Below are positions 6,656-36,907 of a stretch of 48,938 nucleotides of DNA, one piece after another; position 1 is the stretch's first letter; every line of letters begins with the position of its first letter. The position numbers were made by a program, and so were the translations under genes. The notes beneath the pieces are model-generated. The model did not search any database. It saw nothing but the letters and a program-made list of their open reading frames with translations, and had not been told where the DNA came from. This DNA comes from a candidate division WWE3 bacterium. GTDB taxonomy: Bacteria > Bdellovibrionota > UBA1018 > UBA923. Where the stretch lies: positions 1 to 48,938 of the forward strand of contig JBBRLF010000002.1 of assembly GCA_038231515.1 (NCBI GenBank), in the 5' to 3' direction.

Positions 6656-7522
6656 ATGAAAAGTTCATTTGCTGTTTTGACCGTAGCTCTGGCTGCGCTG
6701 TTCATAGGCGGCTGTGATGAGTGCGAAAAGGCAACTCAGACGATCAACGATCTGACTGGCGCCAAAGCTTTGCTTGAGCAAGGCCTGGCCAATCCAACGT
6801 CCTGGGCGGTCACTTGTGACAACCTGGTGCAGAGCTCGGAAATCTTCCGCTCCGACGCGGACTTTCTTCGCGGCGTTGCGGACAGTCGTTACACGGGCAT
6901 CTCACCGGGCTGCTTGGAGCGCGGCTGGGTTGAATATTGCCACGGCGGCTGGGGTCGCTTTCCAGACGGCCAGTGGCTTGCCGATGCCTCAGACGTGAGT
7001 GCCACCCAAAACGATGGCACGTTTGAGATTGAAACACTCAGTCCCGGGCACGGTGGCGGACATGGTGGCGGCGGTCACGGTGGCGGCGGTCACGGCGGCG
7101 GCGGTCACGGCGGCGGCGGTCACGGCGGCGGCGGTCACGGCGGCGGCGGACACCACGGCGGCCCAGGCCACGGCGGCGGACACGGCGGCTGGCATGGCCA
7201 CTATCCCCCGCACTACCCGTATCATCCCGGCTGGCGCTGGGGCTGGGCTCCACGCACCTGTGAGCTTGTACCGGTTTGCCGCGTCTGGCAGCCCGGTGTG
7301 CCCGTGCACCCAGGCTACGACCACGTGATGGCGATTGCCTACGAACTCGACCAGGCCGCTGGCGGCATCGAAACGGCTTGCAAGAAGACGCGCGACGGCG
7401 CACCAGTTGACGAAGTCAACACGGTCGCCACTGAAACGCTTACGCGTATCGAGAAGAACGCCTTGCCCGGAGCCACGTCGGTTTACGACAGCCTCGGCTG
7501 CAACGCACGCGCCGGACACTAA
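6656..7522 (+). CDS. lipoprotein with a (GGGGH)n His/Gly-rich core, paralog of 6016..6651
   Basis: Lipobox MKSSFAVLTVALAALFIGGC. Core PGHGGGHGGGGH(x6)HHGGPGHGGGHGGWHGHYPPHYPYHPGW. Starts 4 nt after the upstream stop, so it is probably co-transcribed. Confidence 0.8.
   Translation: MKSSFAVLTVALAALFIGGCDECEKATQTINDLTGAKALLEQGLANPTSWAVTCDNLVQSSEIFRSDADFLRGVADSRYTGISPGCLERGWVEYCHGGWGRFPDGQWLADASDVSATQNDGTFEIETLSPGHGGGHGGGGHGGGGHGGGGHGGGGHGGGGHGGGGHHGGPGHGGGHGGWHGHYPPHYPYHPGWRWGWAPRTCELVPVCRVWQPGVPVHPGYDHVMAIAYELDQAAGGIETACKKTRDGAPVDEVNTVATETLTRIEKNALPGATSVYDSLGCNARAGH
7049..7201 (+). repeat. 15-bp tandem coding repeat (GGY GGC GGC GGT CAC) with degenerate flanks
   Basis: About six near-identical 15-nt units are visible at 7061-7150, flanked by diverged units. 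They encode GGGGH. Confidence 0.9.
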
Positions 7523-7546
7523 CTCCAAGCGTCTGAACTGTAATAA

Positions 7547-7582
7547 GGCCCGGTCGCATGGTTTGCGGCTGGGCCTTTTTTT
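7547..7582 (+). terminator. rho-independent terminator after the lipoprotein pair
   Basis: ggcccggtcgca-tggtt-tgcggctgggcc forms a 12-bp stem (two G-U pairs) followed by TTTTTTT. Confidence 0.6.
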
Positions 7583-7659
7583 ATTTGTGGCGCCGGGGAC
7601 GAGAGTGGAGCCAGCCCAGTTTTCTCCATTCACTTCACCCCAATAAACGCCGCCCCAAC

Positions 7660-9688
<2,029 letters not shown>

Positions 9689-15653: not shown

Positions 15654-15812
15654 ATGAGAACAAAACGCGAGCTCAGCCAGATCTTCTTTTTATTCGTGAT
15701 TCTAATGGCGCTCATGACGCTAAAGCTCGTCAGCGACAGCAACGCCGCCTCGCTCTCAGATGACCTCACCCGCCCGACCCAGCCTGCTGCTACTTCTTCG
15801 GTCCACCCTTAA
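15654..15812 (+). CDS. possible 52-aa small membrane/secreted peptide
   Basis: MRTKRELSQIFFLFVILMALMTLKLVSDSNA... is signal-peptide-like, with GAGGGGG upstream. It converges on and overlaps the last 23 nt of the giant gene. The only support is ORF, RBS and promoter-like signals. Confidence 0.2.
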   Translation: MRTKRELSQIFFLFVILMALMTLKLVSDSNAASLSDDLTRPTQPAATSSVHP

Positions 15813-18800
15813 TATTCGCAATACTCGCCAGGTCACAAAGCGACTGCGACTCCCCGGCATTGCAGAAACACGAGTAATTACAAGAGATCCCCTTTTTAGG
15901 TGCCACGCTCATGCTGTATTTTTCATTGGGCTTCTTGCAGTCCGAACTCGCACCATACATCACTTTTTGACAGGCGCCGGCGTAAGGAAAGCTGACATCC
16001 GTGTCGTACGTGCGCGAGGCCGGCGGGTCGATGACCGCCTTCTTGTTTTTACACGTGGCAGATGGGGCGCACGTGTAGCGATAGTTGCCGTTGGGTGACT
16101 TGGTTTCCAAGGCGTTGGCCGAACGAGGATCGAGGACCTTCGTCGGCTTTCCATCTTCAAGGTTCTCGCACGCCCGGGTAAAATAAACCGGGTCGATGTT
16201 CTTCTCAGGATTGGCCAGCTGCGGATTGGTAGCCGTACAGTCTGCAGCCCCCGATACGCCAAGCAGCATATCCGTGTCGTCCCGATAAAAGTGGATTTTA
16301 TCTTCCACCTCAGTGAAGGACTTTGACGGCTTCGCATTGGGCCAAACAGGTTTGAGCACCACAGCACCATCAGCAGTGGGCTTCGCCGGCGGCGGGGTCG
16401 CTGGGTCCGTCGCAGTGGGCACCCCCTTGCCCGTACCATCGCTGCTGACCACGACGTCCTTGTCATCGACTTTCACAAGCGACACCGCGGCTCGAGCCTT
16501 GTCCGCAGGCATGGACAGACAGACCTTCTTGCCGCCAGCACCGCCTGCTTTGAATTCCTTAAGCAGATTACAAGTACAGAGGTACCGGCACTGAAACTCA
16601 TATTTACTCTTCGACGCGGGGTCGGTCGCCGTCACCGTCTGATCCGTCAGCAGCGGCTGGGGCGGCGAGGCCGTACCCGTGCAGCCATTGGCCGCGGCCA
16701 CCATTCGCGTCGAGGCAAAAAGTGTTTCCGAGGGATTGGGCAGGTCACGACACTTGCCTGCCGCCTCCGACCAGACGGCCGGGGCAATCTTTTCAGGGTC
16801 AACCGTAGCGGGACTGTCGGTACCGCCCTCAGTCGCTACCGCCACCGGCGGCACCTCGGTCGTTGCCACCACGGAACCGCTGGCAACCGGCCCAACCTTT
16901 TCAGGCGAGGCCGCAGTACCCACGGCTACCGTCACCGGCCCACTACCGACTGCCGGCAGGCGGGCGGCAACCGTTGGAGTGCTGGGCGCAGCTACCACGG
17001 CACTCGCAGCCTCAGGCCCGCCATTGGCAAAGACCTTCGAGGCGTCAATCGAGCAGGTCTTGCCCGTGCAGCTGCACGGATACATGCACGAAAATTTCAA
17101 GATATTGCCTGCGCCCGCAAGAAACACCTCGGGCCCTTTGCCGGGTACGCCATTTGATTTACAAGAAACTTCGTTGGCGGCGATCGACTTGCCCTGCTCC
17201 AGGCATTTCGAGGTGGCCACCCGCTCATAATCCTGCGCTTCTTTCTCGGTAGGCTTGACGACCTCCAGGGCTCCTGGTGGATTTCTGTTGAGGCCGGTGA
17301 CCCCGTTCAAATCTTCGCCATTCTTAGGCGAAACCAGCACGGCTTTAGCTCCCGAACAGGCGTTAGTCTGACAATTACACTGGTAAGTGCAGCTGTAGGG
17401 CAGCGGCGCGTGACTGACGTCGCCAGTAAAGTTCGAGGCATAGGTCGTGGTTTCCTCGATAGAGATGGGGCCCGCCGTCTTTTTCGGGTTAGAATCGGCG
17501 CAGGAAGAGAGCACCTTGCTTGTGACCGCGCCCTGAGCGATCTCAAGTGATTTGGGGTTCGGAAAAATGGCGGCGCTGGGCGTGACTCCATCCTTACAAG
17601 CCTTGTCGAGAATGGTGCGATACAGGGCGAAATCAGCCAGGCGGGCCTGCTCGCGGCTTTCTGGAGTATCCAGCGGCGTAACCTTGTCAGACGAAGGCGT
17701 CTGGCCCGAGTAGCTGACTCTTGCCCGGTCGGCATACGCCAAACCGTCAGCGCAGCTGTAGAGACACTTATATTGAAAAACGATCTTGTGGCTCGTTTTG
17801 GTTTCGACGCCACCCGCAATCGGCTCAATCAGAAACTCACTCGGCGGCGTGGCCGCCTTTTGTGGACAGAAAACCTCATACTGCGTTTGAGGAACCGTGG
17901 TTTTCTTTTTAGGATCGGCGTCGGGCTTCTGCTTCTTTCTGGCGTCGTACTCCTTGGTCAGCGCTCCAGTGGGTCCACTGCAGGCGGCTACGGCCAGGGT
18001 ATCAGTCTGCATCCTCGCCTGATTGCGGCTGGCCAGCACCGCGGTGGGCTTGGGTGGCTCGGTAGCCTTGCCGTTCTTCTCGTATCTCGTCCAGTCCGTA
18101 ATCACTGCCGAGCTGGTGGAGTCGCTCGTGGAACCGCTCGTGGAGCCGCCGCTGGGGCCACTCCCAGAGCCCACCGCCACGGTCACACGCGGTACCGTAA
18201 ATCCGACGGGAGTCAGATAAGAAAACTTCGAACTCTTGTCGAGCTTGCCCGCTCGCGCTTTGGCAATTTCGTCAGCCGACGCAGTGGGAATTGCAGCCAG
18301 CCCCGCGGCCGTAACGACGGGTGGAATCAGCACCACGCCGCAGCCCTTGGGGCTCGCGCAGTTGCAGTGAAACTCGCAGCCAAAATCAAGCAACGCACTT
18401 GAAGCTTCGCCAAGCAGCGTGACCTTCGAGCGCGGCTCCACGACCAGCCGGCCTTTGTCGTCTTTCGCCGCACTGGTATTGGCGCAGCCCGTGGTAACCA
18501 CACTGCTCGTCTCGACGGGTGCCGATTTCAAACAGGCTTTGGCTGCGATGCCAAAGCGTCCTTTGCTTTCGTCGTCGCGCAGATAATGCGCGACATCGGC
18601 GGCAACCGTGACCGCGTTTTTATTGGGAGCGGGATTGGGTTCGTCGGCCATGCCCAGATAAACGGGTTCCGGAAAATAGCAGCGAGCCGGATTGCACAGG
18701 CAGCGCGACTGACAGCCCACTCTGACCTTATACTTGGAGTTCGTAGCCCCAGGCGCCACGCCCTCGACTTCGTGAGCCGGGTTAAACAGATTCAGGTCGA

Positions 18801-20952
18801 TGCGGTTTGAGGTGGTGCCATTGCAGGTCTGGTCGTTGGCCACGAGCTGGCTTTCCGAGCTAAACGGAAACTGCCCATTGGTGACGATGTTGCGGCAGTT
18901 CGCCTTTTCCGACTCCAGCGCGGCATCAATCGCCCGCTCACGCGTTTCGAGCTGGCTGGCCAGCGTGGACGTTGCCGCATAGTCGGTCACTGCAGGCAGG
19001 GAGTTGCCCGCGCCGTCGTTTTTGTTTCCAGGCGTGTTCCCGGCAGCGTCACCGGTTCCAGCCGTGGACTTGTCGCCACTCGCGGCGTCGCTGCCCGTGC
19101 CGACCCCGGCACTGGCACCGGCACTGGCCCCGGCGCTAATCTGGGCGCCTGTCGCGCCGCCCGCACCGCTACTCAGCGCTACTTGGGAAGGGTCAAAGGC
19201 TAGCGCCGAGCCGCCGCCCCACTTGGACATATTGGGAAACATTCCGACGTAGGCGGCAGCACCCATGGCCAACTTCGAGTTCAAGTCACACGACTTGTCC
19301 TGCGCTTTGGCCGGCGGATTCTTACCGCTGAAATAAGACTGCGCCAGCTTGTCAGAGCTGGTGCGTGATTTTGCGACCGAGCCTTTGGCCGAGCCACAGA
19401 CCAGCACTGAGATATCAGGATCGCTGGAAACCAGATTATTAAGAACTTCCAGGGCCGGCGCGCTGCTGCCGCGTGCATTATAGAAAGCGTCGCAGTACGG
19501 CGCCAAAGTTTCGGCCAGCATGGCTTTTTTATCGGTCTGCGGCTCACTGGCGACGTAGCCGGCGATTGCCTTGTCGGCGAAAAACTGGGCCACACCGTCG
19601 TTGCTCTGATCGCGCTGCAAGACGTTCAGGTTTTCTGACGCGTCGGTAATCACCTGCTCCTTACCTTTGAACTGAGTCATCTTCTTGAGCTCAACGTCGG
19701 TAAAGGGCGCTGGGCAATGCGGAGCACCTTTCTGCACCTGAAAGTCGGCCGTGTTCTGCACGGCCTTGTCGTAGTCGGCCCGGCGCGACTCCGGCACCGG
19801 AATCACGGCAAAGCCGTCGGGCATGGTCATCTCAGGAATGGCATTTTTAGCTGGACCCGACTTGGAGCGTGCGATTTTGGCAGCCACGCAGCCGCGCAGG
19901 GGTTCCAGAAAACCGGCCAGCGAAATGCCGGGCGCAGGACTGCCCGCACTCAGCTGATCCATCGCGCAGGGGTCAATCGCATGACTCATCGCCGTGGCAA
20001 TCGAACCGGCAAGCTCACTGGGATTGTCCGACAGCAGCGTGGCCGGACAGATCACAACCTTGTTGCGGCCACCGTTGGTGCCGCGCACAAAGAACGTGTT
20101 GTGCTGGCCCGGAAAACAGTACTCGGCGGCAAGACTGTTGTCGATATCCACCTCACGAATCGCCTTCTTCATGCGTGCGAATGTTTCGCGCACAAAGTTG
20201 CTGTTCTGGTCGGTGGACTGGTCTTTCATTGCCGTCAAGACTGCCTCGCGCTGGCGATCGAGCACGCCACCTGGCAGCGACTCGCGGGGCGCCATGATGT
20301 CTTGGAGCTTGCGCAGGGCTGCGGCCGCACGGGGCCCGTACTCCGACTGCACGCCGGCCTGAAGTTTGGTGTCGACGTCTTTTTGCAAAGCCTCATCGTC
20401 CGCATTCTTGGGATTTTTGGCGCGGTCTTGCAGGTCGCGAAACTGGCTGCGCTCTTTGCTGTCCTGCTCAAGATAATACAAAAAGCTCTTTGGCGTCTGG
20501 CCCGCCTTGGCGGCTTTGCGGCCCTCTTCCCGGAACTTTCCAAGTTTCTGGGCAGCGATGGTTTTTTCAGGATCAGTCATCGACTGCTGCAGAATTTCCA
20601 CGCGACGCGCATAGTCCTCGAACCACGTCTTGTTTCTGCGCACTTTGGTACTTGTTGCGCCGCACGCGTAGCCAAAAAAAGTTTTAGCGCTGCAGCTATC
20701 GCCACCCGCGTAGCTCTTGTCGATGATGCTTTCGTGCTTGTAGCAAACCGAGGGCGGCAGGCCCCAATCGCGGGCCGAACGCAGGATACCCGGCACGTCT
20801 TCGAAAGGCAGCGACTCGTCGGCACTGGGATCAACGGTGGGCTCGACCACTTTGGCTGGCCCCTTGGCCAGCGTTACCGAGGCCGTCAGTGCAAAGCTTA
20901 GTGCCACGGTGGCAGTCAGAAATCTGGCCGAGAACGAATTGGGTGTTCTCAT
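15790..20952 (-). CDS. giant (~1720 aa) secreted protein: M13-peptidase-like domain with substituted active site, plus eight Cys-rich modules
   Basis: Start taken at ATG 20952 (MRTPNSFSARFLTATVALSFALTASVTLA signal peptide, GGAG 8 nt upstream). Contains neprilysin/PepO-type motifs FFGYACG and SIATAMSHAID, then a repeated C-x3-C-x-C-xn-C knot. Confidence 0.9.
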   Translation of the reverse strand: MRTPNSFSARFLTATVALSFALTASVTLAKGPAKVVEPTVDPSADESLPFEDVPGILRSARDWGLPPSVCYKHESIIDKSYAGGDSCSAKTFFGYACGATSTKVRRNKTWFEDYARRVEILQQSMTDPEKTIAAQKLGKFREEGRKAAKAGQTPKSFLYYLEQDSKERSQFRDLQDRAKNPKNADDEALQKDVDTKLQAGVQSEYGPRAAAALRKLQDIMAPRESLPGGVLDRQREAVLTAMKDQSTDQNSNFVRETFARMKKAIREVDIDNSLAAEYCFPGQHNTFFVRGTNGGRNKVVICPATLLSDNPSELAGSIATAMSHAIDPCAMDQLSAGSPAPGISLAGFLEPLRGCVAAKIARSKSGPAKNAIPEMTMPDGFAVIPVPESRRADYDKAVQNTADFQVQKGAPHCPAPFTDVELKKMTQFKGKEQVITDASENLNVLQRDQSNDGVAQFFADKAIAGYVASEPQTDKKAMLAETLAPYCDAFYNARGSSAPALEVLNNLVSSDPDISVLVCGSAKGSVAKSRTSSDKLAQSYFSGKNPPAKAQDKSCDLNSKLAMGAAAYVGMFPNMSKWGGGSALAFDPSQVALSSGAGGATGAQISAGASAGASAGVGTGSDAASGDKSTAGTGDAAGNTPGNKNDGAGNSLPAVTDYAATSTLASQLETRERAIDAALESEKANCRNIVTNGQFPFSSESQLVANDQTCNGTTSNRIDLNLFNPAHEVEGVAPGATNSKYKVRVGCQSRCLCNPARCYFPEPVYLGMADEPNPAPNKNAVTVAADVAHYLRDDESKGRFGIAAKACLKSAPVETSSVVTTGCANTSAAKDDKGRLVVEPRSKVTLLGEASSALLDFGCEFHCNCASPKGCGVVLIPPVVTAAGLAAIPTASADEIAKARAGKLDKSSKFSYLTPVGFTVPRVTVAVGSGSGPSGGSTSGSTSDSTSSAVITDWTRYEKNGKATEPPKPTAVLASRNQARMQTDTLAVAACSGPTGALTKEYDARKKQKPDADPKKKTTVPQTQYEVFCPQKAATPPSEFLIEPIAGGVETKTSHKIVFQYKCLYSCADGLAYADRARVSYSGQTPSSDKVTPLDTPESREQARLADFALYRTILDKACKDGVTPSAAIFPNPKSLEIAQGAVTSKVLSSCADSNPKKTAGPISIEETTTYASNFTGDVSHAPLPYSCTYQCNCQTNACSGAKAVLVSPKNGEDLNGVTGLNRNPPGALEVVKPTEKEAQDYERVATSKCLEQGKSIAANEVSCKSNGVPGKGPEVFLAGAGNILKFSCMYPCSCTGKTCSIDASKVFANGGPEAASAVVAAPSTPTVAARLPAVGSGPVTVAVGTAASPEKVGPVASGSVVATTEVPPVAVATEGGTDSPATVDPEKIAPAVWSEAAGKCRDLPNPSETLFASTRMVAAANGCTGTASPPQPLLTDQTVTATDPASKSKYEFQCRYLCTCNLLKEFKAGGAGGKKVCLSMPADKARAAVSLVKVDDKDVVVSSDGTGKGVPTATDPATPPPAKPTADGAVVLKPVWPNAKPSKSFTEVEDKIHFYRDDTDMLLGVSGAADCTATNPQLANPEKNIDPVYFTRACENLEDGKPTKVLDPRSANALETKSPNGNYRYTCAPSATCKNKKAVIDPPASRTYDTDVSFPYAGACQKVMYGASSDCKKPNEKYSMSVAPKKGISCNYSCFCNAGESQSLCDLASIANIKGGPKK

Positions 20953-20956
20953 AATT

Positions 20957-21487
20957 TCACTCCACCATTCCGTCGCTGGCTTCAAAAAAATTCTTGAAGG
21001 CATAAGCGACTGCGTCGTCTTTGATTGAGCCCAGGCAAACCTGGGATTTTTCGGATTTTTTTCCTAGTCGATAGGAGATCGCAGCGATATTGCGGCAAAC
21101 CACCTTGGCGCGGTCTACCCGTTTGTTCTCGAACAGGATGCGATCGAGCAGCACCCAGTTGCGGGCCTGCCAGCGCTGGCAGGCGGCTTCGTTAAATTCC
21201 GACTTGGCCTCGGTTACCAGCCGCGAGGCGATTCCCCGCCCGCTTTTTTGTTTGAACGCCATCGTAAAACCGATGGGCCAGTGGTCAGTGCCCTCGGTGG
21301 GCGTGACCGACACGTGGAGTTCGAAATCCTGTTTGCAAGGATTAGGAATCGTGACCACTTTGGCTTTGCTTGCGGCAGCCAGCGGCGCTTTTGCATGAGA
21401 CACCGCGGCCGTCAACGCAACCAAGGCTGTTAAAACAGCTGGAAATAAATATCGCACAAGAGTCCCCCAGTAGCTCAATTGTCTCAA
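20957..21487 (-). CDS. 176-aa secreted hypothetical protein, translationally coupled to the giant gene
   Basis: Signal peptide (...VLTALVALTAAVSHAKAP) and 4 Cys. Its TGA (20957-20959) lies 4 nt before the giant gene's ATG. Confidence 0.65.
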   Translation of the reverse strand: MRQLSYWGTLVRYLFPAVLTALVALTAAVSHAKAPLAAASKAKVVTIPNPCKQDFELHVSVTPTEGTDHWPIGFTMAFKQKSGRGIASRLVTEAKSEFNEAACQRWQARNWVLLDRILFENKRVDRAKVVCRNIAAISYRLGKKSEKSQVCLGSIKDDAVAYAFKNFFEASDGMVE

Positions 21488-21777
21488 TCTGTAGTATTTT
21501 AGTCAAGTTTTGTGCTCGAAATGATGCGGGTAGGAATTTTTTGCCCTCGAGGCGTTCGCGAATGCCACGGCCGTCAACTCCACTCCCTTATATATGATAC
21601 GGCCACACGGCAACAAAGTAGCCCCTTTGCGGGGCAAAGCGCATAAGTTTGCAACCGCGTGATCTGCTGGGCTGCTAAGCCCTTACAACTTATTGCCAAT
21701 TTATACTCGGGTGGGTGGCCTTGATTACCCGACAAAAAGAGTTGTACAATAATAGACGGCAAGTCCGTGGGGGTTTT

Positions 21778-24090
21778 TATATGGTTATAGGGCGTAACGT
21801 GAATCAATCTGCTCAGTCTCATTGCGACAGAAATGGGCGCGCGCTTGTCGCGACCAAAGATCAATCGAATTTATTGATGCAGCGAATCTGGGTGACCCTT
21901 GCGGTTGCCACCGCGGCAATCACGCTATATTCGAACAATGCATCTGCCTCAATGGATACTCTTCCCGCGCCGGTGACTCCGCCCGTGACGGCTCCCGCCA
22001 AGGTGAAGGAAGATGGCACCGAAGTGGCTCCCTTGCCCACGAAGACGCCGACCGCACCCGCAAGCGAAACAGCCGATCTGGATGCGAAAGTTGCGAGCGC
22101 ATGTGCAGGCGTACCCGAAGACGGCTCGTCCGGCTCTGCCTCCAAGGCGATGATAGCCAGAAACAGCTCTTATGAGTCCTGCATGGATTCTGCTGGCAGC
22201 CAGTTTAAGCCAAAACCCATGGCAGCCAATGCCACCCAACTTCAGGTCGACGCAAATGCACAGCTCGCGGAGCAAAAGGCTGCAGCTGAAAAAGCCTGCG
22301 CCAGATCCAAGTCCTCAGCAGAGGGATCCGATGCGTTAGCCGCTGATGAAGCCGGCGCAAAGAAAAAGGACTGCGACAAAGCTAAATATGACAGAGACCA
22401 AGCCATCCTCGCCGGCCTGCCGGCAAAAGCCAAAAAGTGGGTTCTTGAAACGAATGATGTTACGGGCACAACTGCCGAGATCACCGCTACGAACTGCGCA
22501 CAGGCTCTGTTTGAAAGCGAACACGATACTATCGAAAAGAAAAAAAATCCCGCACCCTCGATTCGCGATACCAAAGGCGCCTGCGATAAAGCCGTGGCGG
22601 TCCTTGGCGCTGGCAAGTCCAAGGAAAGCGCCAAAGCAACCTCGGCCGATGACGCAAAGTTCAAGGCTGATGAGTGCGCTGACGCAGTCCGAGCAGCAAT
22701 GCGCGAAGGTCAGTCCGGTTGTGATACCCCCGATAACTGCGCAAAATTGCACGGCTGCACTGCCGACATCAGCACGATCAAAACCACCGAGGTGGTAAGC
22801 CAGGTCACAACCCAAGGAGTACAGCTGGTTGCTCAGACCACGGGCGCCATCGCTCAAATGAACGTGCAGGCCAGTGCCCAGGCTGCGGCCACCGGTGCCA
22901 ATGGAAAAACCAACGATGATGTCCATAGGGATGCCCTTACGGCAATGGCCACCGCCCAGACCGAAGCTGCGGGCGCTCAATTGGCCGGTGCCACAACACT
23001 CACCGTCACAGCCGCTGTCGAGGCCTACACCGCCAGTGTTCAGTCAGATTCGGTCAAAAAAATATCCGCAAAAATGGACGTTCTTCTCAAACACAATGAT
23101 CTGGTCAAAGATTATATCGCGGACCCGAGCCGTGAAAATTATGAGCTTGTTCACAACGACTATAAAGACAATATGGGGACCCTGGGTACGAATCCAAACA
23201 TGATAAACCAGGAGTCGTCCGCCAAATCGGCAGACCCCGCGCTGATGCAGTTCGACGAAGGCAGGATCAGAGCCGCCCTTGGCACGAAGAAGGCTCTTGC
23301 CGATAAAGCCTCGGGTCTGGCTCTGCAGCACGGCGTACAGGCCGGTGTACTCGCGGCGGGCGGGGCCTTGAATCTGGCTCAGGCCTCGATGCTGCGTGAT
23401 CAACGAGACGCGATGGGCTCGGGTGACATCACCACGTCGGGCGCCCCCGAGTTTCACGCCATCGTGGCCGGTGGGCCCAATGGCGCGCTTGTCGACACCA
23501 GCGCACCTCCGGGCGGCATCACTCAAACTCTGGGCGACGGCGCGGCGGCAACCGCGGCTGAAGCCGCACAAGACACGACGAAGGCGCCCGTGGGCGCAAT
23601 ACCTCCCCCGCTCTTTGGCGGCGCGGCCAATCCTGGCGGACTTAAAGACGCCAGTCCCGGAGTCTCGGGTGGCCTTGCCGGCACGGGCAGCTCCAGCGGC
23701 GGCGGCGGCTCAGCCGGCGGCGGTAGCGGCAGCGGCGGTGGCAGCGATAGCGGCGGCGGAGCCGACAAAGCCGGCGACGAGGCTGTGGGCTCGAAGACCA
23801 AATTCGAAGGTGCCGCAAGCGGCGCAGGCGGATTTGCTTCAAACTCCTCAGGCACCCGCGATAAGAACACGGGCATGTCGGCCGATGGAATTCTCGCGGG
23901 CCTGCTCGGAGCCAAAGGCGACGACCGCAAACCGGCCAGCGACATCGTGAACTTCGGCAAAAACGGCGCTGCGGCGAAAGCTCAGGCGAAGTCAGACGAA
24001 GAAGAAGGAATCCTGGGCAAGAACACGAATCTGTTCACCCGGGTCTCAAAAACCACGGTCAGCTATTACAAAACCGGCAAGCTGAAATAA
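21778..24090 (+). CDS. secreted Ala/Gln/Gly-rich protein, family member 3 (shares the C-terminal module with 26629..28005 and 28273..30741)
   Basis: Hydrophobic signal segment MQRIWVTLAVATAAITLYSNNASA. The start is ambiguous: ATG 21778 has GGGGG upstream, ATG 21877 sits directly at the signal peptide, and the track uses GTG 21715. The C-terminus has a GGGGSAGGGSGSGGGSDSGGG tract and the shared terminal module. Confidence 0.7.
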   Translation, partial: YMVIGRNVNQSAQSHCDRNGRALVATKDQSNLLMQRIWVTLAVATAAITLYSNNASASMDTLPAPVTPPVTAPAKVKEDGTEVAPLPTKTPTAPASETADLDAKVASACAGVPEDGSSGSASKAMIARNSSYESCMDSAGSQFKPKPMAANATQLQVDANAQLAEQKAAAEKACARSKSSAEGSDALAADEAGAKKKDCDKAKYDRDQAILAGLPAKAKKWVLETNDVTGTTAEITATNCAQALFESEHDTIEKKKNPAPSIRDTKGACDKAVAVLGAGKSKESAKATSADDAKFKADECADAVRAAMREGQSGCDTPDNCAKLHGCTADISTIKTTEVVSQVTTQGVQLVAQTTGAIAQMNVQASAQAAATGANGKTNDDVHRDALTAMATAQTEAAGAQLAGATTLTVTAAVEAYTASVQSDSVKKISAKMDVLLKHNDLVKDYIADPSRENYELVHNDYKDNMGTLGTNPNMINQESSAKSADPALMQFDEGRIRAALGTKKALADKASGLALQHGVQAGVLAAGGALNLAQASMLRDQRDAMGSGDITTSGAPEFHAIVAGGPNGALVDTSAPPGGITQTLGDGAAATAAEAAQDTTKAPVGAIPPPLFGGAANPGGLKDASPGVSGGLAGTGSSSGGGGSAGGGSGSGGGSDSGGGADKAGDEAVGSKTKFEGAASGAGGFASNSSGTRDKNTGMSADGILAGLLGAKGDDRKPASDIVNFGKNGAAAKAQAKSDEEEGILGKNTNLFTRVSKTTVSYYKTGKLK

Positions 24091-26451: not shown

Positions 26452-26628
26452 GTGTTTCTCCTCGCTTCAGTGTCCTTCAAAGCTGCCCAATTTTCAGCAC
26501 CCATTCCAGACGCCCCCCACCCGCTCGGATTCGCTGGGCTTTCGCAACCCCTTGGCAGCACTTGATTACCTGACTAATAAAGACGTACAATGATAACGTT
26601 GGGGAAAGCGTCATTTACCGGGGGACGT

Positions 26629-28005
26629 ATGCTTAAATTTTTACGAAATAACGGTCTTGTGGCCATGATGGCAATGCTCGTCATGGTCAGTGGCATCAGT
26701 CACACGACAAGCGCGCACGCCGACGCCGCGCCACCCGCGGCTAAACCGGACACCGCCGGCGGACAAGACCCCTGCTCCGTAACCGACGACTCCGCGGCCC
26801 ACGAGCAGTGTAACGAAAAAGATCTCGCCATCGGCACCGCGGCTGCGCAGTCGGCCGAGGCCACCGCGTTTCTCGTCGCTGCGATTATCTGTACGGTTGC
26901 CTGCGTGGAATATGCCGACGCCTCTGGTATCGACGGTCAACATGCAGCCGGCGAAGCTTTGCTCAATGGCGCCTGTCGAATCGCGGGCTTTGTCGCACTG
27001 GGCGTTGATGTCGCGGGCGGCGTTGCCGTCACTGCCGCCAGCGCCGCCATTCAAAAGAAAGTCGATGGCGGATCCCTGGCCATGAGCCTGGGAATGACCG
27101 CTGTAGGCGCCATCGTATCTGTTGCGGCTGGTGTCTCGTGCCCGTTAACGCCAATTATGGATTTTCTGCAAGCCGGCATCCGTGGCGTCAATATGGGGAT
27201 GAGTATTGACCAGGCTAACAAAGCCAGAACCGCTGCCAAAGAAACCCGGCAATACAAGGCGTCCAATGCGCAAATTTCCAAAGTTGCCACCGCCGGCGGT
27301 GCTGCGGGCAGCGCGGCCGACTCCACGCAGGCCTCTGCAACGGCAAGCGATCCTAAATTGCTGCGCGACATGCCCGCTGCGGACAAGAAAAAATTCAGCG
27401 ACAAAAACTTCGCCCAGTCCAGCGCAACGGCCGCCGATGGGCCGGCAAGAGCGGTGCTTGCCGAGGAGTTTAAAAAGATGACGGGCCATAGTCCCGACGA
27501 TCTCACCAAGCATCTGCTCGATGGGGAGTCGGCTACCGCAGCCGCGCTGGCCGTGGCTGGCGACAAGATGGGCCCTTACACCAAACTTGTCGAGCGTATG
27601 GACGCAAACCGCGACAAGCTCTACACAGAGTTTGCCGGCGCCGGTGATGCCCCGGTTGGCAAGTCCACCGACTTTGAGGTGGCCTCAGCCGCGAGCAAAC
27701 ACTCAAAATCCAAAAGCGATGGCATGCCCGACGTAAGCGCCATGCTGGCCGCCATGCACGCCAAAAAAGGCGCAGCCGACGCACCCAAGACGGCAGCGCT
27801 CGACTTCGGCACGAAGAAACACGAGCCGGCAAATGCCGAAGGCCTACATCCGCCGAGCCGCTCGCTCTTCGACATCATCGATTCGCGTTACGAGCTGGTG
27901 CAGACCCGTTTTCTGGCCGGCCAGGACATCGGCATGCGCGCGCCGGCCTCGGTGGTCACGCCGCCCGTGGGCAGCGCGCCCACGAATATCTATCTCAAAC
28001 AGTGA
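26629..28005 (+). CDS. secreted Ala/Gly-rich protein, family member 1
   Basis: Start at ATG 26629 (MLKFLRNNGLVAMMAMLVMVSGISHTTSAHA). It is preceded by cgggggacgt, the same leader found before the paralog's GTG at 28273. Long collinear motif blocks are shared with 28273..30741. Confidence 0.8.
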   Translation: MLKFLRNNGLVAMMAMLVMVSGISHTTSAHADAAPPAAKPDTAGGQDPCSVTDDSAAHEQCNEKDLAIGTAAAQSAEATAFLVAAIICTVACVEYADASGIDGQHAAGEALLNGACRIAGFVALGVDVAGGVAVTAASAAIQKKVDGGSLAMSLGMTAVGAIVSVAAGVSCPLTPIMDFLQAGIRGVNMGMSIDQANKARTAAKETRQYKASNAQISKVATAGGAAGSAADSTQASATASDPKLLRDMPAADKKKFSDKNFAQSSATAADGPARAVLAEEFKKMTGHSPDDLTKHLLDGESATAAALAVAGDKMGPYTKLVERMDANRDKLYTEFAGAGDAPVGKSTDFEVASAASKHSKSKSDGMPDVSAMLAAMHAKKGAADAPKTAALDFGTKKHEPANAEGLHPPSRSLFDIIDSRYELVQTRFLAGQDIGMRAPASVVTPPVGSAPTNIYLKQ

Positions 28006-28272: not shown

Positions 28273-30741
28273 GTGGGCAAATTACAGAAGACGGGTCTAA
28301 TCAGGTCTACGACCATCGTTGTACTTGGAGCATTCGCTCTGCAGCTTGTAGCACCAGGCTTTAGCACGGTCTCGAGCGCGCGCGCCGACAGCACGGCCCT
28401 ACCCCCTAAAGGCGGAGCGGTTGGAGATACCGAAAAAGGAGCACCAGGCTCGGGCGGCGTAGGCGACCCGTGCGATGTGGTTGACGAGTCTGCCGCCAGC
28501 GAACAATGCAACGTCAAGAAACTTGCCATCACGACCGCCGTGATTCAGGGCGGTGAAGCTTTGGCCTTCACGACTGCCGCCACTCTGTGCACCGTCGCGT
28601 GCGTGGCGCAAGCTGCCGACAAAGCCGCAGGCAAGGCCGCAAAAGAAGCCGCCGAAGCCGCCGATAAATTCGCACAGACAACGGGCCCGGACATTAAAAA
28701 GCATACCGAGCCAATCCAGGGCCTGGTTGCCAAGGCAAAAGACGGCCTGGAGGCCTCCAAGGATTGTGGCCTGCCGGGCACCGGTAAGCTACCAAAGGCA
28801 GTCCCACCCGGCCCGCCGGCCGTAACCGCATGCACGAATGATGCGTCCGAACGCACAGCCAATAAAGACTTTGCTGGTGCCGCTAAAGCGACAGAAGGAT
28901 CTACCGCCGCAGTCGCGTATAACGAGGGCATTGTGAGCTGCGTGGAATCTGCCGCCCATGGTCAGGTGACCATGGTTAAGGCCGCCGCAGAAATTGGCCT
29001 GGCGCAAGAAGCCGCCGCAGAGCTGGTCGCGGAAGAAGCACCGACTGTTGGCATGGGCCAGACGGTCATCAAGACGGGAGAGGCCGCGTTCGTAGGCCCC
29101 TCGCCCTCGGAGGCAAGCGAGGTGATCGCTGAAGCAGCCGCGGATGCGCTCGATAAAAAAGCAGACTTGATGCTCACCGCTTCAAACAGACTCAGAGACC
29201 AGGCAAACAATTATCTTCAAGATCAGACCACCGGCGCAATTCAGTTCGAACATGTGGTGCTTGGCTCGGCATCGAAGCTCGCCGAAGATGAGATCCCCAA
29301 AGGGGCCTGCTCTGTAATTTCAAAGCTCACCGATGCGGGCAAAGAAGGCTCTAAAGAGGCCACCGACAAGGCCGGTAATGCGGCCTGCGCTCAAGGCGTC
29401 ACAGTTATCGTGGGCACCGTCCTGGCGCCAGACTGTTTGAAAGATCTGACCAGTCCTGCAAAGGAAGCAGATTCGGCGTGTGCCGCCGCCTCGGGCAAAC
29501 TGCAGCCCCTGAAAGCCGAAGCGATGAAGATGGCCTCAGGTCTCACACCAATCGTAGGCTGCCCCGGGCTACCGGGTGCCCCCAGTGTGCCACCCGGCGA
29601 AGTCGAAGTTTACAAAGACATGACCACTCTCGTGGTCACAACGGCCAAGGCAGCCCACAAGGCCCGCACATTCCGTGAATCCACCCGCACCGCCTGCAAG
29701 ATCGGCAACTATGCCGCACTCGGTGTGGACGTCGCCGGCGGTATCGCAACCACGGTAGCTGGCGCCGCGATTACCAAGAAAATCGACGCAGGCTCGATCA
29801 CCGGTCTGACCACCACCGTGGCCATGGATGTCGCGCAGCAAACCCTAAATAAAACGGACAACGATAAAGGCAGCCAGCAAGAAGAGATCAACTGCCCGCT
29901 CGAGCCCATCACTCACTTTCTGCAGGCCGGCATTCGCGGCGTAAATATGGGAATGAGTATCGCCAAGGCCAACGAGGCCTCGCACTATGCGCTGGAGCTC
30001 AGAGTTTATAAGGGCGGCTCAAGCCCTACCCAAGTCGCCAAGGGCGGTGGAGCAGCTAGCGGTGGTGGTGACAACAGCGGCAGCGCAGGCCCCGAGCAGG
30101 CTCAGGATCCCAAGATGCTCCGAGATCTGCCGGCCGCGGACAAAAAGAAATTTACCGCCGCAAACTTCGCGGCCTCGAGCGCCACGGCAGGCGAAGCCAA
30201 GACCATGGCTCCGGCCCTGCTTGAAGCCACCACGGGCCACTCCGCCGAGGAGCTCAACAACAGACTCCTCAATGGCGAGTCACCCATGGAAGCGGCGATG
30301 GCCATCTCAGGCGCGCAGATGGGCAGCATGCTGCCCATTGTAGCCGCGCTTCACCAGAATAAAGATCAGCTCTACAAAGAACTGGCCCCCGAGATGGAGC
30401 AGGTTCACGTGTCCAAGAATGACTTTGATTCTGGCAAAGGCGGCTCAGCCAAACACCACAGTAGCAGCAGTGACGGCATGCCAGACATGAGCGCGCTGCT
30501 GGCTGGACTGCAGGGTAAACAGAAGGAAGCAGGTCCACCGGGCTCCAAAACGGTGGCCTTTGGCCAAGGCGCCAAGACCTCGGGCGTGAGCGCTGATGGT
30601 CTGCACCCCGCAAGCAAATCGCTCTTCGACATCATTGGCACGCGTTATCAGCTCGTTCAAAAGCGCTTTCTGGCGGGCGAAGCCACTGGCATGGATCAGG
30701 CGCCGTCGAGCGTGCCAAAAAACATCTATCTGCGGAAGTAA
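28273..30741 (+). CDS. secreted Ala/Gly-rich protein, family member 2 (expanded paralog)
   Basis: GTG start and signal peptide (IVVLGAFALQLVAPGFSTVSSARA). It has the same N-terminal Cys block, hydrophobic core and C-terminal module as 26629..28005, plus an insertion of roughly 350 aa. Confidence 0.85.
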   Translation: MGKLQKTGLIRSTTIVVLGAFALQLVAPGFSTVSSARADSTALPPKGGAVGDTEKGAPGSGGVGDPCDVVDESAASEQCNVKKLAITTAVIQGGEALAFTTAATLCTVACVAQAADKAAGKAAKEAAEAADKFAQTTGPDIKKHTEPIQGLVAKAKDGLEASKDCGLPGTGKLPKAVPPGPPAVTACTNDASERTANKDFAGAAKATEGSTAAVAYNEGIVSCVESAAHGQVTMVKAAAEIGLAQEAAAELVAEEAPTVGMGQTVIKTGEAAFVGPSPSEASEVIAEAAADALDKKADLMLTASNRLRDQANNYLQDQTTGAIQFEHVVLGSASKLAEDEIPKGACSVISKLTDAGKEGSKEATDKAGNAACAQGVTVIVGTVLAPDCLKDLTSPAKEADSACAAASGKLQPLKAEAMKMASGLTPIVGCPGLPGAPSVPPGEVEVYKDMTTLVVTTAKAAHKARTFRESTRTACKIGNYAALGVDVAGGIATTVAGAAITKKIDAGSITGLTTTVAMDVAQQTLNKTDNDKGSQQEEINCPLEPITHFLQAGIRGVNMGMSIAKANEASHYALELRVYKGGSSPTQVAKGGGAASGGGDNSGSAGPEQAQDPKMLRDLPAADKKKFTAANFAASSATAGEAKTMAPALLEATTGHSAEELNNRLLNGESPMEAAMAISGAQMGSMLPIVAALHQNKDQLYKELAPEMEQVHVSKNDFDSGKGGSAKHHSSSSDGMPDMSALLAGLQGKQKEAGPPGSKTVAFGQGAKTSGVSADGLHPASKSLFDIIGTRYQLVQKRFLAGEATGMDQAPSSVPKNIYLRK

Positions 30742-35060: not shown

Positions 35061-35463
35061 TAGTTGGATCGAACGCGAGTCCACGGGACTGCCGGCAAGC
35101 CAGCTTGGGTTGCTGTACACCTATGCGTTAAACATGGTCTGGCAGCGCGCCAAAATAACGCTCAGCGAGGTTTCCCTATCCGTCATTTTTGACCGTGTAT
35201 TGTATCTGAGCCGCGACAAATTTCCGATATTGTCCGATCTCAAACTACAAACCAACGGCGTTCTTCTAGACGACCATTCAAACCGCATCTGTAACTCCCC
35301 GCCAGCTGAAGTTACCCAGGCGTTTCGCCACCTGCTCAATAACCTGATCTCCATACTGGGAACATTCTCGGCCGATACTCTGACTGGACCTTTAAACGAG
35401 GAACTAAACAAAATCACCGCCGCGCAAATATCAGAACCGGTGCCAGAACGAGAGGCCAAATGA
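35023..35463 (+). CDS. hypothetical protein upstream of the KaiC-like gene (start uncertain)
   Basis: Its stop overlaps the KaiC-like ATG (ATGA). The track's start is TTG 35023; the first ATG is at 35134. I recognise no motif. Confidence 0.5.
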   Translation: MIELARPKQDTLDSWIERESTGLPASQLGLLYTYALNMVWQRAKITLSEVSLSVIFDRVLYLSRDKFPILSDLKLQTNGVLLDDHSNRICNSPPAEVTQAFRHLLNNLISILGTFSADTLTGPLNEELNKITAAQISEPVPEREAK

Positions 35464-36902
35464 AAAAGGAAATGAACACTGATCGTCGAATCAAAACCGC
35501 GGTAATTAATCTGGACGCTGTCCTGAATGGCGGTATTCCCGAGGACTCCATGGTTATGGTTATCGGGGTACCCGGTACCGGAAAAACAATCCTCTCTCAC
35601 CAAATTGCGTTCAGTAATGCCAATGCCGACAGCCGCTGTCTTATTTTTCAGACTCTCTCAGAGCCGGCATCTAAAGCCCTAAGACACCTTTCTCAATTTG
35701 ATTTCTACAACCCAAAGCTCATTGACGAGGGAATCATTCAGCTGATCGATCTAGGCGCCCTTATTCGAGCCTCCAGACTCGATGAAGTCATTCCGATGAT
35801 CATGGAACACGTAAAAAGGGTTAGGCCCAAATTCGTAATCGTGGACAGTTTCAAGGTTTTCGAAGATCTGGCCACGAACTCCCAGGATCTGCGAAACTTC
35901 TCATATGAAGTGGCGATTCACCTGATGGCCTGGGAATGTACTTCATTTCTACTCGGCGAATATACCCCCCAGGACGTCGAGACTAACCCGCTATTCTCGA
36001 TCGCCGACGGCATTCTGCGGCTCAGCCTTCGACAAGAAGAGGGCGAGCAGCAGCGTTTTTTACAAGCCACCAAAATGCGGGGAACGTCCCACAGCGTTGA
36101 TGAGCACGCACTTTTCATTAGTAACTCAGGAATAAGCGTTTATGCTCCGCGCGTTACCATTCGTCGCGAAAGCGTTGCCGACCCTTACACCAAGGCCCGG
36201 GCCCCATTGCGCGCCAAGCTGGGTATTTCGAAAATCGACGAACTTTTGGGCGAGGGCGTGCCGTATGGATCCAGTATGCTCATTTCTGGTGTTGCCGGTA
36301 CCGGCAAATCCCTTCTGCTGCTTGAGTTCATCTATCGCGGTGCCAAGGAGTTTAACGAAAAAGGAATAATTTTCTCCTTCGAGGAAACCGAAGAAAGAAT
36401 TCTGGCAGTTGCTCAGGGAATGGGTTGGGACCTATTGACCGAAATAAAGAGGGGCATGATCGAAATCGTTTTTGTGTCGCAGCCTGAAATTGTCGTGGAA
36501 CGAGACCTGCTGATGATGCATGAGCGAATAACAAAGATGAAGGCGAAACGCGTAGCCGTCGACTCGGCCTCCATTTTTGTGCACAAGATCACCGATTCGC
36601 GAATTGTGCGCGAAAAAATCTACCAGCTCACCACCCTTGTCCAAATGTCGCAGGCCATAGGCTTTTTAGCCTCAGACATCACCTACGGCACAAACAGAAT
36701 CAGCCGCTTTGGAGTGGAAGAGACGGTTGTTGACGGGTTGATTTTGCTGACTTCCAATGCCATTGGCGACGAGCGCGAACGATTTCTGGAAGTGTATAAG
36801 CTCAGAAACACGGCTCACGTCGACGGCAGGCATAGGATGACCATTGCGCACGGTGGAATCGTAATATATCCCCGCATCCAGCTGGAAAAGAAGATCGCAT
36901 AA
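35460..36902 (+). CDS. KaiC-family double RecA-like-domain ATPase
   Basis: Two tandem domains each carry GG(I/V)P...G(V)xGTGK(T/S) Walker A (GVPGTGKT at aa 36-43, GVAGTGKS at aa 277-284) and hhhhD Walker B (FVIVDS, RVAVDS). Domain 2 keeps FSFEETEE. Confidence 0.9.
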   Translation: MKKEMNTDRRIKTAVINLDAVLNGGIPEDSMVMVIGVPGTGKTILSHQIAFSNANADSRCLIFQTLSEPASKALRHLSQFDFYNPKLIDEGIIQLIDLGALIRASRLDEVIPMIMEHVKRVRPKFVIVDSFKVFEDLATNSQDLRNFSYEVAIHLMAWECTSFLLGEYTPQDVETNPLFSIADGILRLSLRQEEGEQQRFLQATKMRGTSHSVDEHALFISNSGISVYAPRVTIRRESVADPYTKARAPLRAKLGISKIDELLGEGVPYGSSMLISGVAGTGKSLLLLEFIYRGAKEFNEKGIIFSFEETEERILAVAQGMGWDLLTEIKRGMIEIVFVSQPEIVVERDLLMMHERITKMKAKRVAVDSASIFVHKITDSRIVREKIYQLTTLVQMSQAIGFLASDITYGTNRISRFGVEETVVDGLILLTSNAIGDERERFLEVYKLRNTAHVDGRHRMTIAHGGIVIYPRIQLEKKIA

Positions 36903-36907
36903 ACCCC

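Follow-up and report, generated by a model that had tools for sequence, protein, structure and literature searches.

What kind of protein places eight successive cysteine modules at its C-terminal end, and do these modules belong to any known family? The window (the whole stretch of DNA that was analysed, 48,938 nucleotides) encodes such a protein, for which the original prediction proposed eight tandem copies of a cysteine module matching no familiar Cys-repeat family, exported by a signal peptide and held together by three disulfides per module, and suggested that it might be an extracellular stalk, adhesin, or binding array.

The gene, its partner and its neighbourhood

The reading frame covers 15790..21003 on the minus strand, with a translation of 1737 residues, and had been counted from its ATG at 21003. 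This start is mis-assigned. The ATG of Met18 at 20952 is located 5 nt past the stop codon of the upstream gene and is preceded by GGAG 7 nt before it; the true start of the protein (P0001) is almost certainly Met18, as judged from the nucleotide sequence, and the earlier residue numbers are therefore larger by 17 than those of the 1720-residue product used here (Table 1). The signal peptide has no lipobox. An equivalent N-terminal hydrophobic segment or signal peptide is found in all full-length relatives, among which no C-terminal anchor was detected, and no sorting signal follows module 8 at the C-terminus of P0001. The linkers among the later modules are of low complexity and rich in Pro, Val, and Thr. 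The orthologue P0002 is colinear with P0001 (34% identity), with conservation extending module by module. Three features had gone unremarked in the original prediction: the didomain formed by modules 1 and 2, the degenerate zincin-like N-terminal third, and a conserved small partner gene.

Table 1. Features of the P0001 locus (window coordinates; residues numbered from Met18)
Feature	Coordinates	Strand	Description
Upstream partner gene	20957..21487	-	176-aa secreted Cys-containing protein; homologues upstream of the big gene
Big gene (P0001, 1720-aa exported protein)	15790..20952	-	Probable start at Met18 to stop codon; from ORF, colinear orthologue, and synteny
Signal peptide	20866..20952	-	Residues 1-29, MRTPNSFSARFLTATVALSFALTASVTLA/KG, read from sequence
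N-terminal domain	19207..20820	-	Residues 45-582, mostly helical; core ~225-582 degenerate zincin-like (M13-like)
NTFF	20089..20100	-	Residues 285-288; aligned to NAFY strand motif of P0020/P0022
TAMSHAIDPC	19966..19995	-	Residues 320-329; aligned to HEMSHAIDPC of P0020/P0022
Ala/Gly/Ser-rich low-complexity linker	18991..19206	-	Residues 583-654; from composition
Module 1	18628..18963	-	Residues 664-775; Cys 686, 710, 747, 751, 753, 758; didomain first half
Module 2	18298..18612	-	Residues 781-885; Cys 807, 823, 859, 863, 865, 871; didomain second half
Module 3	17704..18039	-	Residues 972-1083; four-Cys variant, C5 and C6 gone
Module 4	17308..17661	-	Residues 1098-1215; six Cys
Module 5	16999..17262	-	Residues 1231-1318; six Cys
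Module 6	16474..16797	-	Residues 1386-1493; six Cys, C6 displaced (C-x3-C-x-C-x16-C)
Module 7	16018..16305	-	Residues 1550-1645; four-Cys variant, C4 and C6 gone
Module 8	15793..16017	-	Residues 1646-1720; short six-Cys module at C-terminus

Translation of the partner gene appears to be coupled to that of the big gene, and in four other loci (L001, L003, L004, and L005) its homologues (26-59% identical) immediately precede the big gene; the 176-residue partner gave no match in Pfam or NCBIfam, and the other neighbours gave none in Pfam. The chromosomal neighbourhood of the big gene is conserved in six genomes, in most of which it is surrounded by a multi-gene cluster of secreted proteins, and a conserved operon of Ala-rich secreted proteins is divergently transcribed nearby. 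No conserved peptidase gene was found in this neighbourhood.

A family of six-cysteine modules

All 55 Cys residues listed earlier are at the positions given for them in the numbering from the ATG at 21003, in which the interval 15835-18897 extends from Cys703 to Cys1723. In the same numbering, exact C-x3-C-x-C motifs are present at 764, 876, 1205, 1306, 1472, and 1708, and modules 3 and 7 indeed contain four Cys each (1008/1046/1080/1084 and 1589/1612/1645/1651, respectively). The longer knot, C-x3-C-x-C-x4-16-C, is present in six of the eight modules. Could this periodicity be no more than the compositional noise of a low-complexity protein that contains Cys? Such a reading could draw on the low-complexity linkers, on the low inter-module identity (mean 18%, or 11.5% without the Cys columns), and on the weak pairwise hhalign comparisons of two-sequence module alignments, but it is already refuted and has next to no probability left. 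The six C-x3-C-x-C motifs compare with 0.07 expected per shuffle of the module region (1070 residues, 44 Cys), and four or more were never reached in 200,000 shuffles. Because the pairwise comparisons were weak, family-level HMMs were needed; a module profile was iterated within the family and compared with decoys that had been locally shuffled (fivefold) with the Cys density kept. Modules 1 to 7 scored 32.1, 57.9, 7.6, 35.6, 29.6, 32.6, and 20.9 bits, with no decoy above 3.3 bits, so that seven of the eight modules exceed every decoy. Module 8 reached only 2.1 bits, under the decoy maximum; what identifies it is its six-Cys pattern alone, kept in the orthologue (locus L001, in a shifted frame). 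HMMs of the module 1 and module 2 families match all eight module positions in register; module 2 has the conserved motif GE-x-SGA-x-L-x-F-x-C, and module 4 is its closest relative (20.9 bits with the module 2 family HMM). The module-by-module conservation in P0002 and the confident fold prediction described below also speak against noise, and the modules proposed at the outset hold as a non-random repeat in the shuffle test, seven of the eight also by the iterated profile. At the DNA level, TRF found no tandem repeat fitting the modules.

An exhaustive search of 1.84 billion representative proteins yielded only 20 relatives of P0001, which fall into about 20 clusters of a single member each, from uncultured bacteria; one of them, P0010, is from a Bdellovibrionota metagenome-assembled genome. 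This one named relative and the synteny place P0001 in a Bdellovibrionota-like lineage that is uncultured. With the iterated HMM, 64 modules at no less than 8 bits were found in 18 relatives and none in the decoys, and the C-x3-C-x-C motif, whose distribution had been proposed as a check, recurs in 18 of the 20 relatives. A homologue search with full-length P0001 returned only P0002, the candidates being swamped by low-complexity words; a scan of genome contigs gave the P0002 contig again, and a scan of metagenome contigs gave no match.

The view that the module matches no recognised family was borne out. Pfam showed no match on each P0001 module (E<=10) or on the whole protein (E<=1), NCBIfam showed none on P0001, PDB sequence searches with alignments A1, A3, A4, and A5 and with P0020 gave only noise, and a Foldseek search of the didomain model against PDB and BFVD found nothing at E<=1e-3. 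Catalogued Cys repeats (EGF, TSP1, VWC, sushi/CCP, Kazal, and knottin-type) were rejected as candidates for lack of any profile or fold match. The α/β module of ~100 residues and six Cys is a new domain family, with about 67 members spread over about 20 proteins, and its signature comprises two Cys in a helical part and C-x3-C-x-C-xn-C on a β-hairpin, in proteins with signal peptides.

Proposed cysteine pairing and predicted fold

The AF2 model of modules 1 and 2 (pLDDT, 86.1; pTM, 0.84) shows helices packed against a β-hairpin sheet, and the structure prediction that had been suggested as a check thus produced a confident fold with no significant Foldseek match. In each module, two or three helices at the N-terminal side would pack against one face of a sheet formed by a long β-hairpin. 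The earlier description of a helix ending in Cys proved approximate: in the model, C1 is inside the second helix of module 1 and near the helix end in module 2. Modules 1 and 2 constitute a distinct didomain conserved much better than the later modules, and this didomain is also found in proteins with unrelated N-termini and on its own; the genomic contexts of the didomain-only proteins offered no functional clue. It is the portable unit of the family and probably binds a ligand, while the later modules with their Pro/Val/Thr-rich linkers may serve as oxidation-stabilised spacers, varying in number among the relatives.

Across 67 family modules in 18 proteins, six Cys are present in 52, four in 14, and seven in one, and none has five or three; the count is even in 66. 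Where Cys are missing they are lost as pairs, C4 with C6 six times, C5 with C6 six times, and C2 with C5 twice. The hairpin predicted at E86-99/E102-104 pairs C4 (97) with C6 (104) across its two strands. C3, C4, and C5 are located on one face of a single predicted strand in the AF2 model, which would make a C3-C5 bond impossible. The pattern of co-loss and the predicted structure together point to disulfides C1-C3, C2-C5, and C4-C6. In such an arrangement, C1-C3 and C2-C5 would tie the layer of helices to the central strand bearing C3-x3-C4-x-C5, and C4-C6 would staple the hairpin; the four-Cys variants would have lost one pair (C4 and C6) or be rewired (C5 and C6 lost). The variant lacking C5 and C6, as in module 3, does not fit the proposed connectivity unless it is rewired. 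The three disulfides per module originally proposed gain indirect support from the paired loss of Cys, the signal peptide, the absence of CxxC and CxxCH, and the scarcity of His.

Should the Cys instead bind metal, as zinc sites, an Fe-S cluster, or a metallothionein-like cluster, the Cys-dense C-x3-C-x-C would be its natural site, and the same spacing appears in metallothionein papers. We regard this as very improbable: the signal peptide directs P0001 through the Sec pathway to an oxidising compartment, the six Cys of a module are distributed over 60-100 residues with C3, C4, and C5 on a straight β-strand, and Cys counts are even with pairwise loss. CxxC and CxxCH are absent from the 1720 residues of P0001, and only 6 His are present in the 1070 residues of the module region. 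A metal-binding protein was rejected on these grounds, and a haem protein on the absence of CxxC/CxxCH.

The N-terminal head, role, and comparison with known systems

The N-terminal head of ~580 residues looks like a degenerate M13-like zincin devoid of zinc ligands, as suggested by motif alignment and a predicted structure. Two distant relatives, P0020 and P0022, retain NAFY, HEMSHAIDPC, and ExxxD. In P0001, TAMSH has Thr where HEMSH has its first zinc-binding His and Ala where it has the catalytic Glu, and Asp occupies the Glu position of ExxxD (RDQSNDGVAQFFAD), which reads EAFxD in P0020/P0022. HExxH is absent in 10 of 12 aligned N-domains, HEMSH being kept only in P0020 and P0022. The AF2 model of the N-domain (pLDDT, 75.4; pTM, 0.81) places helix H267-282 at the TAMSH motif, following two short strands, and this predicted strand-strand-helix fits a zincin core. 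The likeness to M13 resides in the order of NAFY, HExxHxxD about 30 residues on, ExxxD, and a C-terminal H...R...C in P0020/P0022, which is that of the M13 motifs; the difference is that P0001 has neither zinc ligands nor catalytic Glu, and NTFF in place of NAFY. An hhalign comparison with a neprilysin C-terminus brought NAFY and HExxH into register, with a weak score (P=2.7e-4; probability, 42%), and the relatives of the N-domain showed four sub-threshold Pfam matches (M48, M4, SprT, and M50B). The Pfam M13 entries PF01431 and PF05649 matched neither P0001 nor the N-domain relatives, a PDB sequence profile of the N-domain gave no match, Foldseek of its model against PDB found nothing significant (best E, 0.85), and the genomic context of P0020 held no functional clue. 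At best, the head appears to be a pseudo-enzyme that branched off from an undescribed zincin family, that of the HEMSHAIDPC proteins.

If P0001 were an active secreted M13-like metallopeptidase whose C-terminal modules target substrates, the motif order common to P0001, P0020/P0022, and neprilysin would be accounted for. The replacement of HExxH by TAMSH and of the ExxxD Glu by Asp, the loss of HExxH in most aligned N-domains, and the lack of a Pfam Peptidase_M13 match make this most improbable, and P0001 is most likely a non-catalytic extracytoplasmic protein, with a presumed function in binding or as a scaffold. The head (about 540 residues) may have descended from an M13/neprilysin-like zinc peptidase with loss of the metal ligands, and could at most keep a peptide-binding groove.

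Altogether, we lean towards a Sec-exported, non-enzymatic protein arranged as beads on a string, with a dead M13-like head and eight new disulfide-stapled modules, serving in binding or as a scaffold. In this protein, a flexible Ala/Gly/Ser linker would join the head to eight anciently duplicated modules; P0001 would presumably have a periplasmic or extracellular function, probably in concert with the small secreted partner whose gene directly precedes its own. More speculatively, and in our estimate rather unlikely, the fold would be new and P0001, its partner, and the Ala-rich operon would make up a lineage-defining extracellular apparatus of an uncultured Bdellovibrionota-like clade, which might serve, for instance, to attach to prey or surfaces, and in which the didomain would recognise the ligand, being reused in other phyla. 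Less probable still is that the modules act as protease inhibitors or decoys in an array resembling multi-Kazal proteins or other disulfide-rich inhibitor arrays, with the dead head acting as a decoy or dock, that regulates the secreted peptidases of a predatory bacterium. The secretion of P0001, its compact disulfide-rich modules in tandem, the active-looking small relatives (P0020 and P0022) of its pseudo-peptidase head, and a lineage related to Bdellovibrionota would suit such an array; its modules, however, show no similarity to inhibitor families in Pfam or PDB, are bigger (~100 residues, α/β) than classical inhibitor knots, and carry nothing that marks a reactive-site loop, and the neighbourhood contains no conserved peptidase gene.

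With its clear signature and testable disulfide map, the module could usefully be added to domain databases and, being compact and stabilised by oxidation, would suit structural study as a scaffold. P0020 and P0022 point to an uncharacterised zincin family with a pseudo-enzyme offshoot, and the locus flags a conserved cluster of secreted proteins in a poorly known lineage related to predatory bacteria; the biological impact hinges on the ligand. A comparative-genomics paper on Bdellovibrionota makes no mention of Cys-rich proteins, and C-x3-C-x-C was found in the literature only in papers on small leucine-rich proteoglycans (SLRPs), metallothionein, and plant SGR.

As in the decorin structure, the four-Cys cluster of the SLRP cap forms disulfides 1-3 and 2-4. 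The 2-4 bond is the counterpart of the C4-C6 bond proposed for the module, which is backed by co-loss and hairpin geometry. The counterpart of the 1-3 bond, C3-C5, would be excluded by the predicted straight strand that bears these two Cys, 6 residues apart, and by the loss of C5 with C2. The caps carry CX3CXCX6C in class I, CX3CXCX9C in class II, and CX3CXCX6-17C in class IV, with two disulfides (PMC8305803). From C3 to C6, the module (C3-x3-C4-x-C5-x4-16-C6) has the spacing of the class I, II, and IV clusters (CX3CXCX6-17C), and the cap is extracellular with disulfides that staple a β-hairpin (PMC8305803), as those of the module would; this is what would be expected if the knot were a known Cys motif, either an LRRNT-type CX3CXCX6C cap or one of the EGF, TSP1, VWC, sushi, or Kazal type. 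There is very little to be said for such membership, since no module has a Pfam match even at E<=10, no leucine-rich repeats follow, the motif lies inside an α/β module of ~100 residues with two further, upstream Cys in a bacterial host, the predicted strand geometry would rule out the 1-3 bond of the cap, and Foldseek found no match; the likeness to the SLRP cap is a convergent motif. P0001 shares with other disulfide-rich repeat proteins, such as animal SCREPs, EGF/sushi arrays, and bacterial Cys-rich repeat adhesins, a signal peptide, small tandem domains with even Cys counts, and flexible linkers (PMC6262176); it has no sequence or fold relation to them, and its modules are larger, combining helices with a sheet.

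Gene start, export and chromosomal setting

The gene for P0001, an exported protein with eight Cys modules (M1–M8), had been read from the ATG at 21003, the start of the longest open reading frame (ORF). This start almost certainly does not hold, since that ATG lies inside the upstream gene (overlap zone 20950–21003), and the ATG at 20952 (Met18), preceded by a GGAG Shine–Dalgarno sequence and lying 5 nt after the upstream stop codon, is the likely true start. Translation from Met18 yields the 1720-aa product entered in the protein database as P0001, so that residue numbers in the original prediction exceed those of the product by 17. P0001 begins with what reads as a typical signal peptide, in which no lipobox occurs, and every full-length relative carries a signal peptide, in line with the predicted export; no recognisable C-terminal anchor was found in the full-length relatives.

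The window is ordinary chromosome, carrying DnaE, GuaA, GuaB, LptD and AccD among others. Downstream of the gene lies an asparaginase (opposite strand), then GcvH, a histidine kinase, IspA, a MiaB-like enzyme, IMPDH and GMP synthase. The small upstream gene, whose product in the window had no match in Pfam or NCBIfam, encodes 147–179 aa in the window and in four loci with relatives (L001, L003, L004 and L005), is 26–59% identical, and is closely spaced or overlapping. Because it is kept at the same position in these four loci, its product is probably a stoichiometric partner of P0001, and the two genes appear to be translationally coupled. The relative P0014 occupies the same chromosomal position without the partner gene, which is also absent beside the proteins containing only the M1–M2 didomain; the contexts of the latter gave no functional clue. 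An operon for Ala-rich secreted proteins, transcribed divergently, lies upstream of the gene in the window; homologous ORFs form such an operon beside the gene in L003, L004 and L005. The three Ala-rich ORFs of the window had no Pfam match; two of them, of 471 and 822 aa, are paralogous, with 46% identity across 293 aa, and share N-terminal DPCxVxDxSAAxEQCN and C-terminal GLHPxSxSLFDIIxxRYxLVQxRFLAG.

Coordinates of the features in the window and in related loci
Feature	Location	Strand	Remarks
Longest ORF	window 15790–21003	−	1737 aa
P0001 gene	window 15790–20952	−	1720 aa
Small secreted Cys-containing protein gene	window 20957–21487	−	176 aa, immediately upstream of P0001 gene
Ala-rich secreted ORF	window 21715–24090	+	791 aa
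Ala-rich secreted ORF	window 26590–28005	+	471 aa
Ala-rich secreted ORF	window 28273–30741	+	822 aa
KaiC-like double-domain ATPase gene, then directly HisKA/HATPase_c histidine kinase gene	window 35460–38152	+	
P0002 C-terminus, ending as deposited in an Arg-rich nonsense tail	L001 about 7200–7780		
P0020	L009 7001–8338		small secreted protein, 445 aa; TPNAFY, IAHEMSHAIDPC and EAFxD intact
P0022			small secreted protein, 511 aa; TPNAFY, IAHEMSHAIDPC and EAFxD intact

Cysteine module: homology, proposed pairing and predicted fold

All 55 Cys of the 1737-aa ORF coincide exactly with the positions first listed, counted from 21003. An exact C-x3-C-x-C motif occurs six times (at 764, 876, 1205, 1306, 1472 and 1708 in the same numbering), against a mean of 0.07 per shuffle of the 1070-aa module region, and at least four motifs arose in 0 of 200,000 shuffles; the chance that the periodicity is noise is negligible. 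Metal binding by the Cys is very unlikely, given the absence of CxxC and CxxCH from the protein, the 6 His in the 1070-aa module region, and export.

Modules within P0001 share a mean identity of 18% (11.5% with the Cys columns removed), orthologous modules of P0001 and its homologue P0002 are 21–49% identical, and no DNA-level repeat was found in the module region; the duplications are therefore older than the split of the genomes. Hhalign comparisons between pairs of two-sequence module alignments were weak and were outperformed by family-level HMMs, those of M1 and M2 matching all eight positions in register (M2 family against M4, 20.9 bits). An HMM iterated from M2 matched 64 modules at ≥8 bits across 18 proteins, and none at ≥8 bits in 5× locally shuffled decoys with the Cys density kept. 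Since its scores for M1–M7 (32.1, 57.9, 7.6, 35.6, 29.6, 32.6 and 20.9 bits, respectively) exceed that of the best decoy (3.3 bits), these seven are demonstrably homologous. The proposal of eight successive modules is thus upheld for seven; M8 (2.1 bits) falls below the best decoy and is placed in the family by its conserved six-Cys pattern only.

Among 67 family modules, 52 contain six Cys (C1–C6), 14 four and one seven, with none containing five or three; because independent loss would yield mainly five-Cys modules, the Cys appear to be paired. The four-Cys modules lack C4 and C6 (six modules, including M7), C2 and C5 (two) or C5 and C6 (six, including M3). From these losses we infer the pairing C1–C3, C2–C5 and C4–C6, the one perfect matching that agrees with two of the three kinds of loss. 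M3-type modules would then require a C2–C4 rewiring, which is plausible because C4 and C5 are predicted to point to the same side of a single strand. The pairwise loss lends indirect support to the expected three disulfides per module.

In an alignment of 17 M1–M2 didomains, the twelve Cys, R17, D132 and a G-E-x-S motif are conserved. The AlphaFold2 model of the didomain (mean pLDDT, 86.1; pTM, 0.84) places, in each module, two or three helices ahead of a sheet in which a long hairpin predominates (in M1, helices 8–27, 29–37 and 46–52 and strands 63–67, 73–78, 86–99, 102–104 and 108–114, with analogous elements in M2). In the model, C3, C4 and C5 (93, 97 and 99) lie on the same face of a single strand, C4 and C6 (104) are cross-strand neighbours over a tight turn, and C1 and C2 are within or just past helices. 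This predicted topology fits C1–C3 and C2–C5 bonds stapling the helices to the central strand and a C4–C6 bond stapling the hairpin; a C3–C5 bond would be ruled out by the modelled same-face positions. Foldseek searches with the model gave nothing at E ≤ 1e-3 in the PDB (best E, 0.22; TMq ≤ 0.18) or in BFVD, and a PDB sequence profile search with the didomain alignment gave 0 matches. As had been proposed, the module lies outside recognised families, with no existing family or solved fold matching in Pfam, NCBIfam, PDB or BFVD. The Cys spacing is the same as the CX3CXCX6-17C of the SLRP LRRNT cap (PMC8305803). Nevertheless, a known Cys motif of this kind is highly improbable, since no LRRs follow the knot in P0001, no Pfam match exists, and the predicted bond geometry appears incompatible.

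Relatives and the degenerate head

A word-indexed protein search returned one homologue, P0002 (1623 aa, 34% identical), whose source is a 'Deltaproteobacteria' MAG from groundwater. P0002 is colinear with P0001 and keeps modules and Cys one-to-one, apart from a frameshifted C-terminus; its true last module (CVYTCFCNAKEQKMGC) is legible in a different frame, so that either the MAG assembly or the gene itself contains a frameshift. When 1.84e9 representative proteins were searched exhaustively with HMMER and a profile of residues 120–1215, 20 proteins scored at E ≤ 1e-3, all in singleton clusters save one two-member cluster. Besides P0001 and P0002, eight combine the N-domain and modules (P0003, P0004, P0005, P0007, P0008, P0010, P0012 and P0014; P0010 from a Bdellovibrionota MAG), seven have modules 1 and 2 only, behind unrelated N-termini (P0009, P0011, P0013 and P0015–P0018), two have the N-domain only (P0019 and P0020), and P0006 is a 301-aa fragment over modules 3–4. 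C-x3-C-x-C recurs in 18 of the 20 (up to ten copies, in P0008), and full-length relatives contain two to ten or more modules, with recent C-terminal expansions in P0008 and P0003. The didomain-only N-termini gave sub-threshold Pfam matches only (Sel1 and PEGA in P0015; DUF2380 in P0009), and P0011, P0013 and P0016 bear different Cys-rich tails. Both named relatives carry the annotation 'hypothetical protein' at NCBI.

The N-domain, or head (residues 45–582), is modelled by AlphaFold2 as mostly helical (pLDDT, 75.4; pTM, 0.81), with two short strands immediately preceding helix 267–282 of the model, which carries SELAGSIATAMSHAID. In P0020 and its homologue P0022, the remotest of the relatives, the sequence runs TPNAFY...IAHEMSHAIDPC...DQxxEAFxD...H...R...C, the order in which M13 gluzincins carry their motifs (NAFY, HExxHxxD, ExxxD, C-terminal H/R/C). 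No Pfam family exceeded the threshold on either; P0020 matched M48 at E = 0.076, and P0022 had four sub-threshold matches (M48, SprT, M4 and M50B), all centred on the HExxH region. Against a human neprilysin C-terminal sequence, hhalign placed NAFY and HExxH of P0020 and P0022 in register (P = 2.7e-4 and probability 42% over 50 columns); with the alignment of 12 N-domains, only the C-terminal LNxIVxxDPxLxxxLGC aligned, to IIGTLQNSAEFSEAFHC (E = 0.068). P0020 and P0022 look like members of an undescribed M13-like zincin family from which the N-domain would derive. P0001 itself has NTFF, TAMSH and Asp in the Glu position, and HExxH is missing from 10 of the 12 N-domains; on these grounds the head is rather probably a pseudo-enzyme descended from that family, and an active peptidase is as improbable as the SLRP-like motif. 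Membership of the head in M13 was rejected because of the degenerate motifs and the lack of significance in Foldseek, which gave nothing significant with the N-domain model (M32 carboxypeptidase second, E = 0.88).

Proposed role and relation to known proteins

Altogether, we conclude with high confidence that P0001 is an exported multidomain protein in which a degenerate zincin-like head is combined with a new α/β module that occurs eight times and has three putative disulfides. We favour a non-catalytic role outside the cytoplasm, in binding or as a scaffold, because the head lacks catalytic residues, the M1–M2 didomain is better conserved than any other part and portable between architectures, later modules and linkers differ in number among relatives, and the gene is apparently coupled to a small secreted partner. 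The alternatives descend from a module array acting as a protease inhibitor or decoy, itself unlikely, through metal binding to a known Cys motif and an active peptidase (ranked equally), and then to noise. The module constitutes a new domain family of narrow distribution and probably a new fold; a secreted tandem array of disulfide-rich modules is an already familiar sort of protein.
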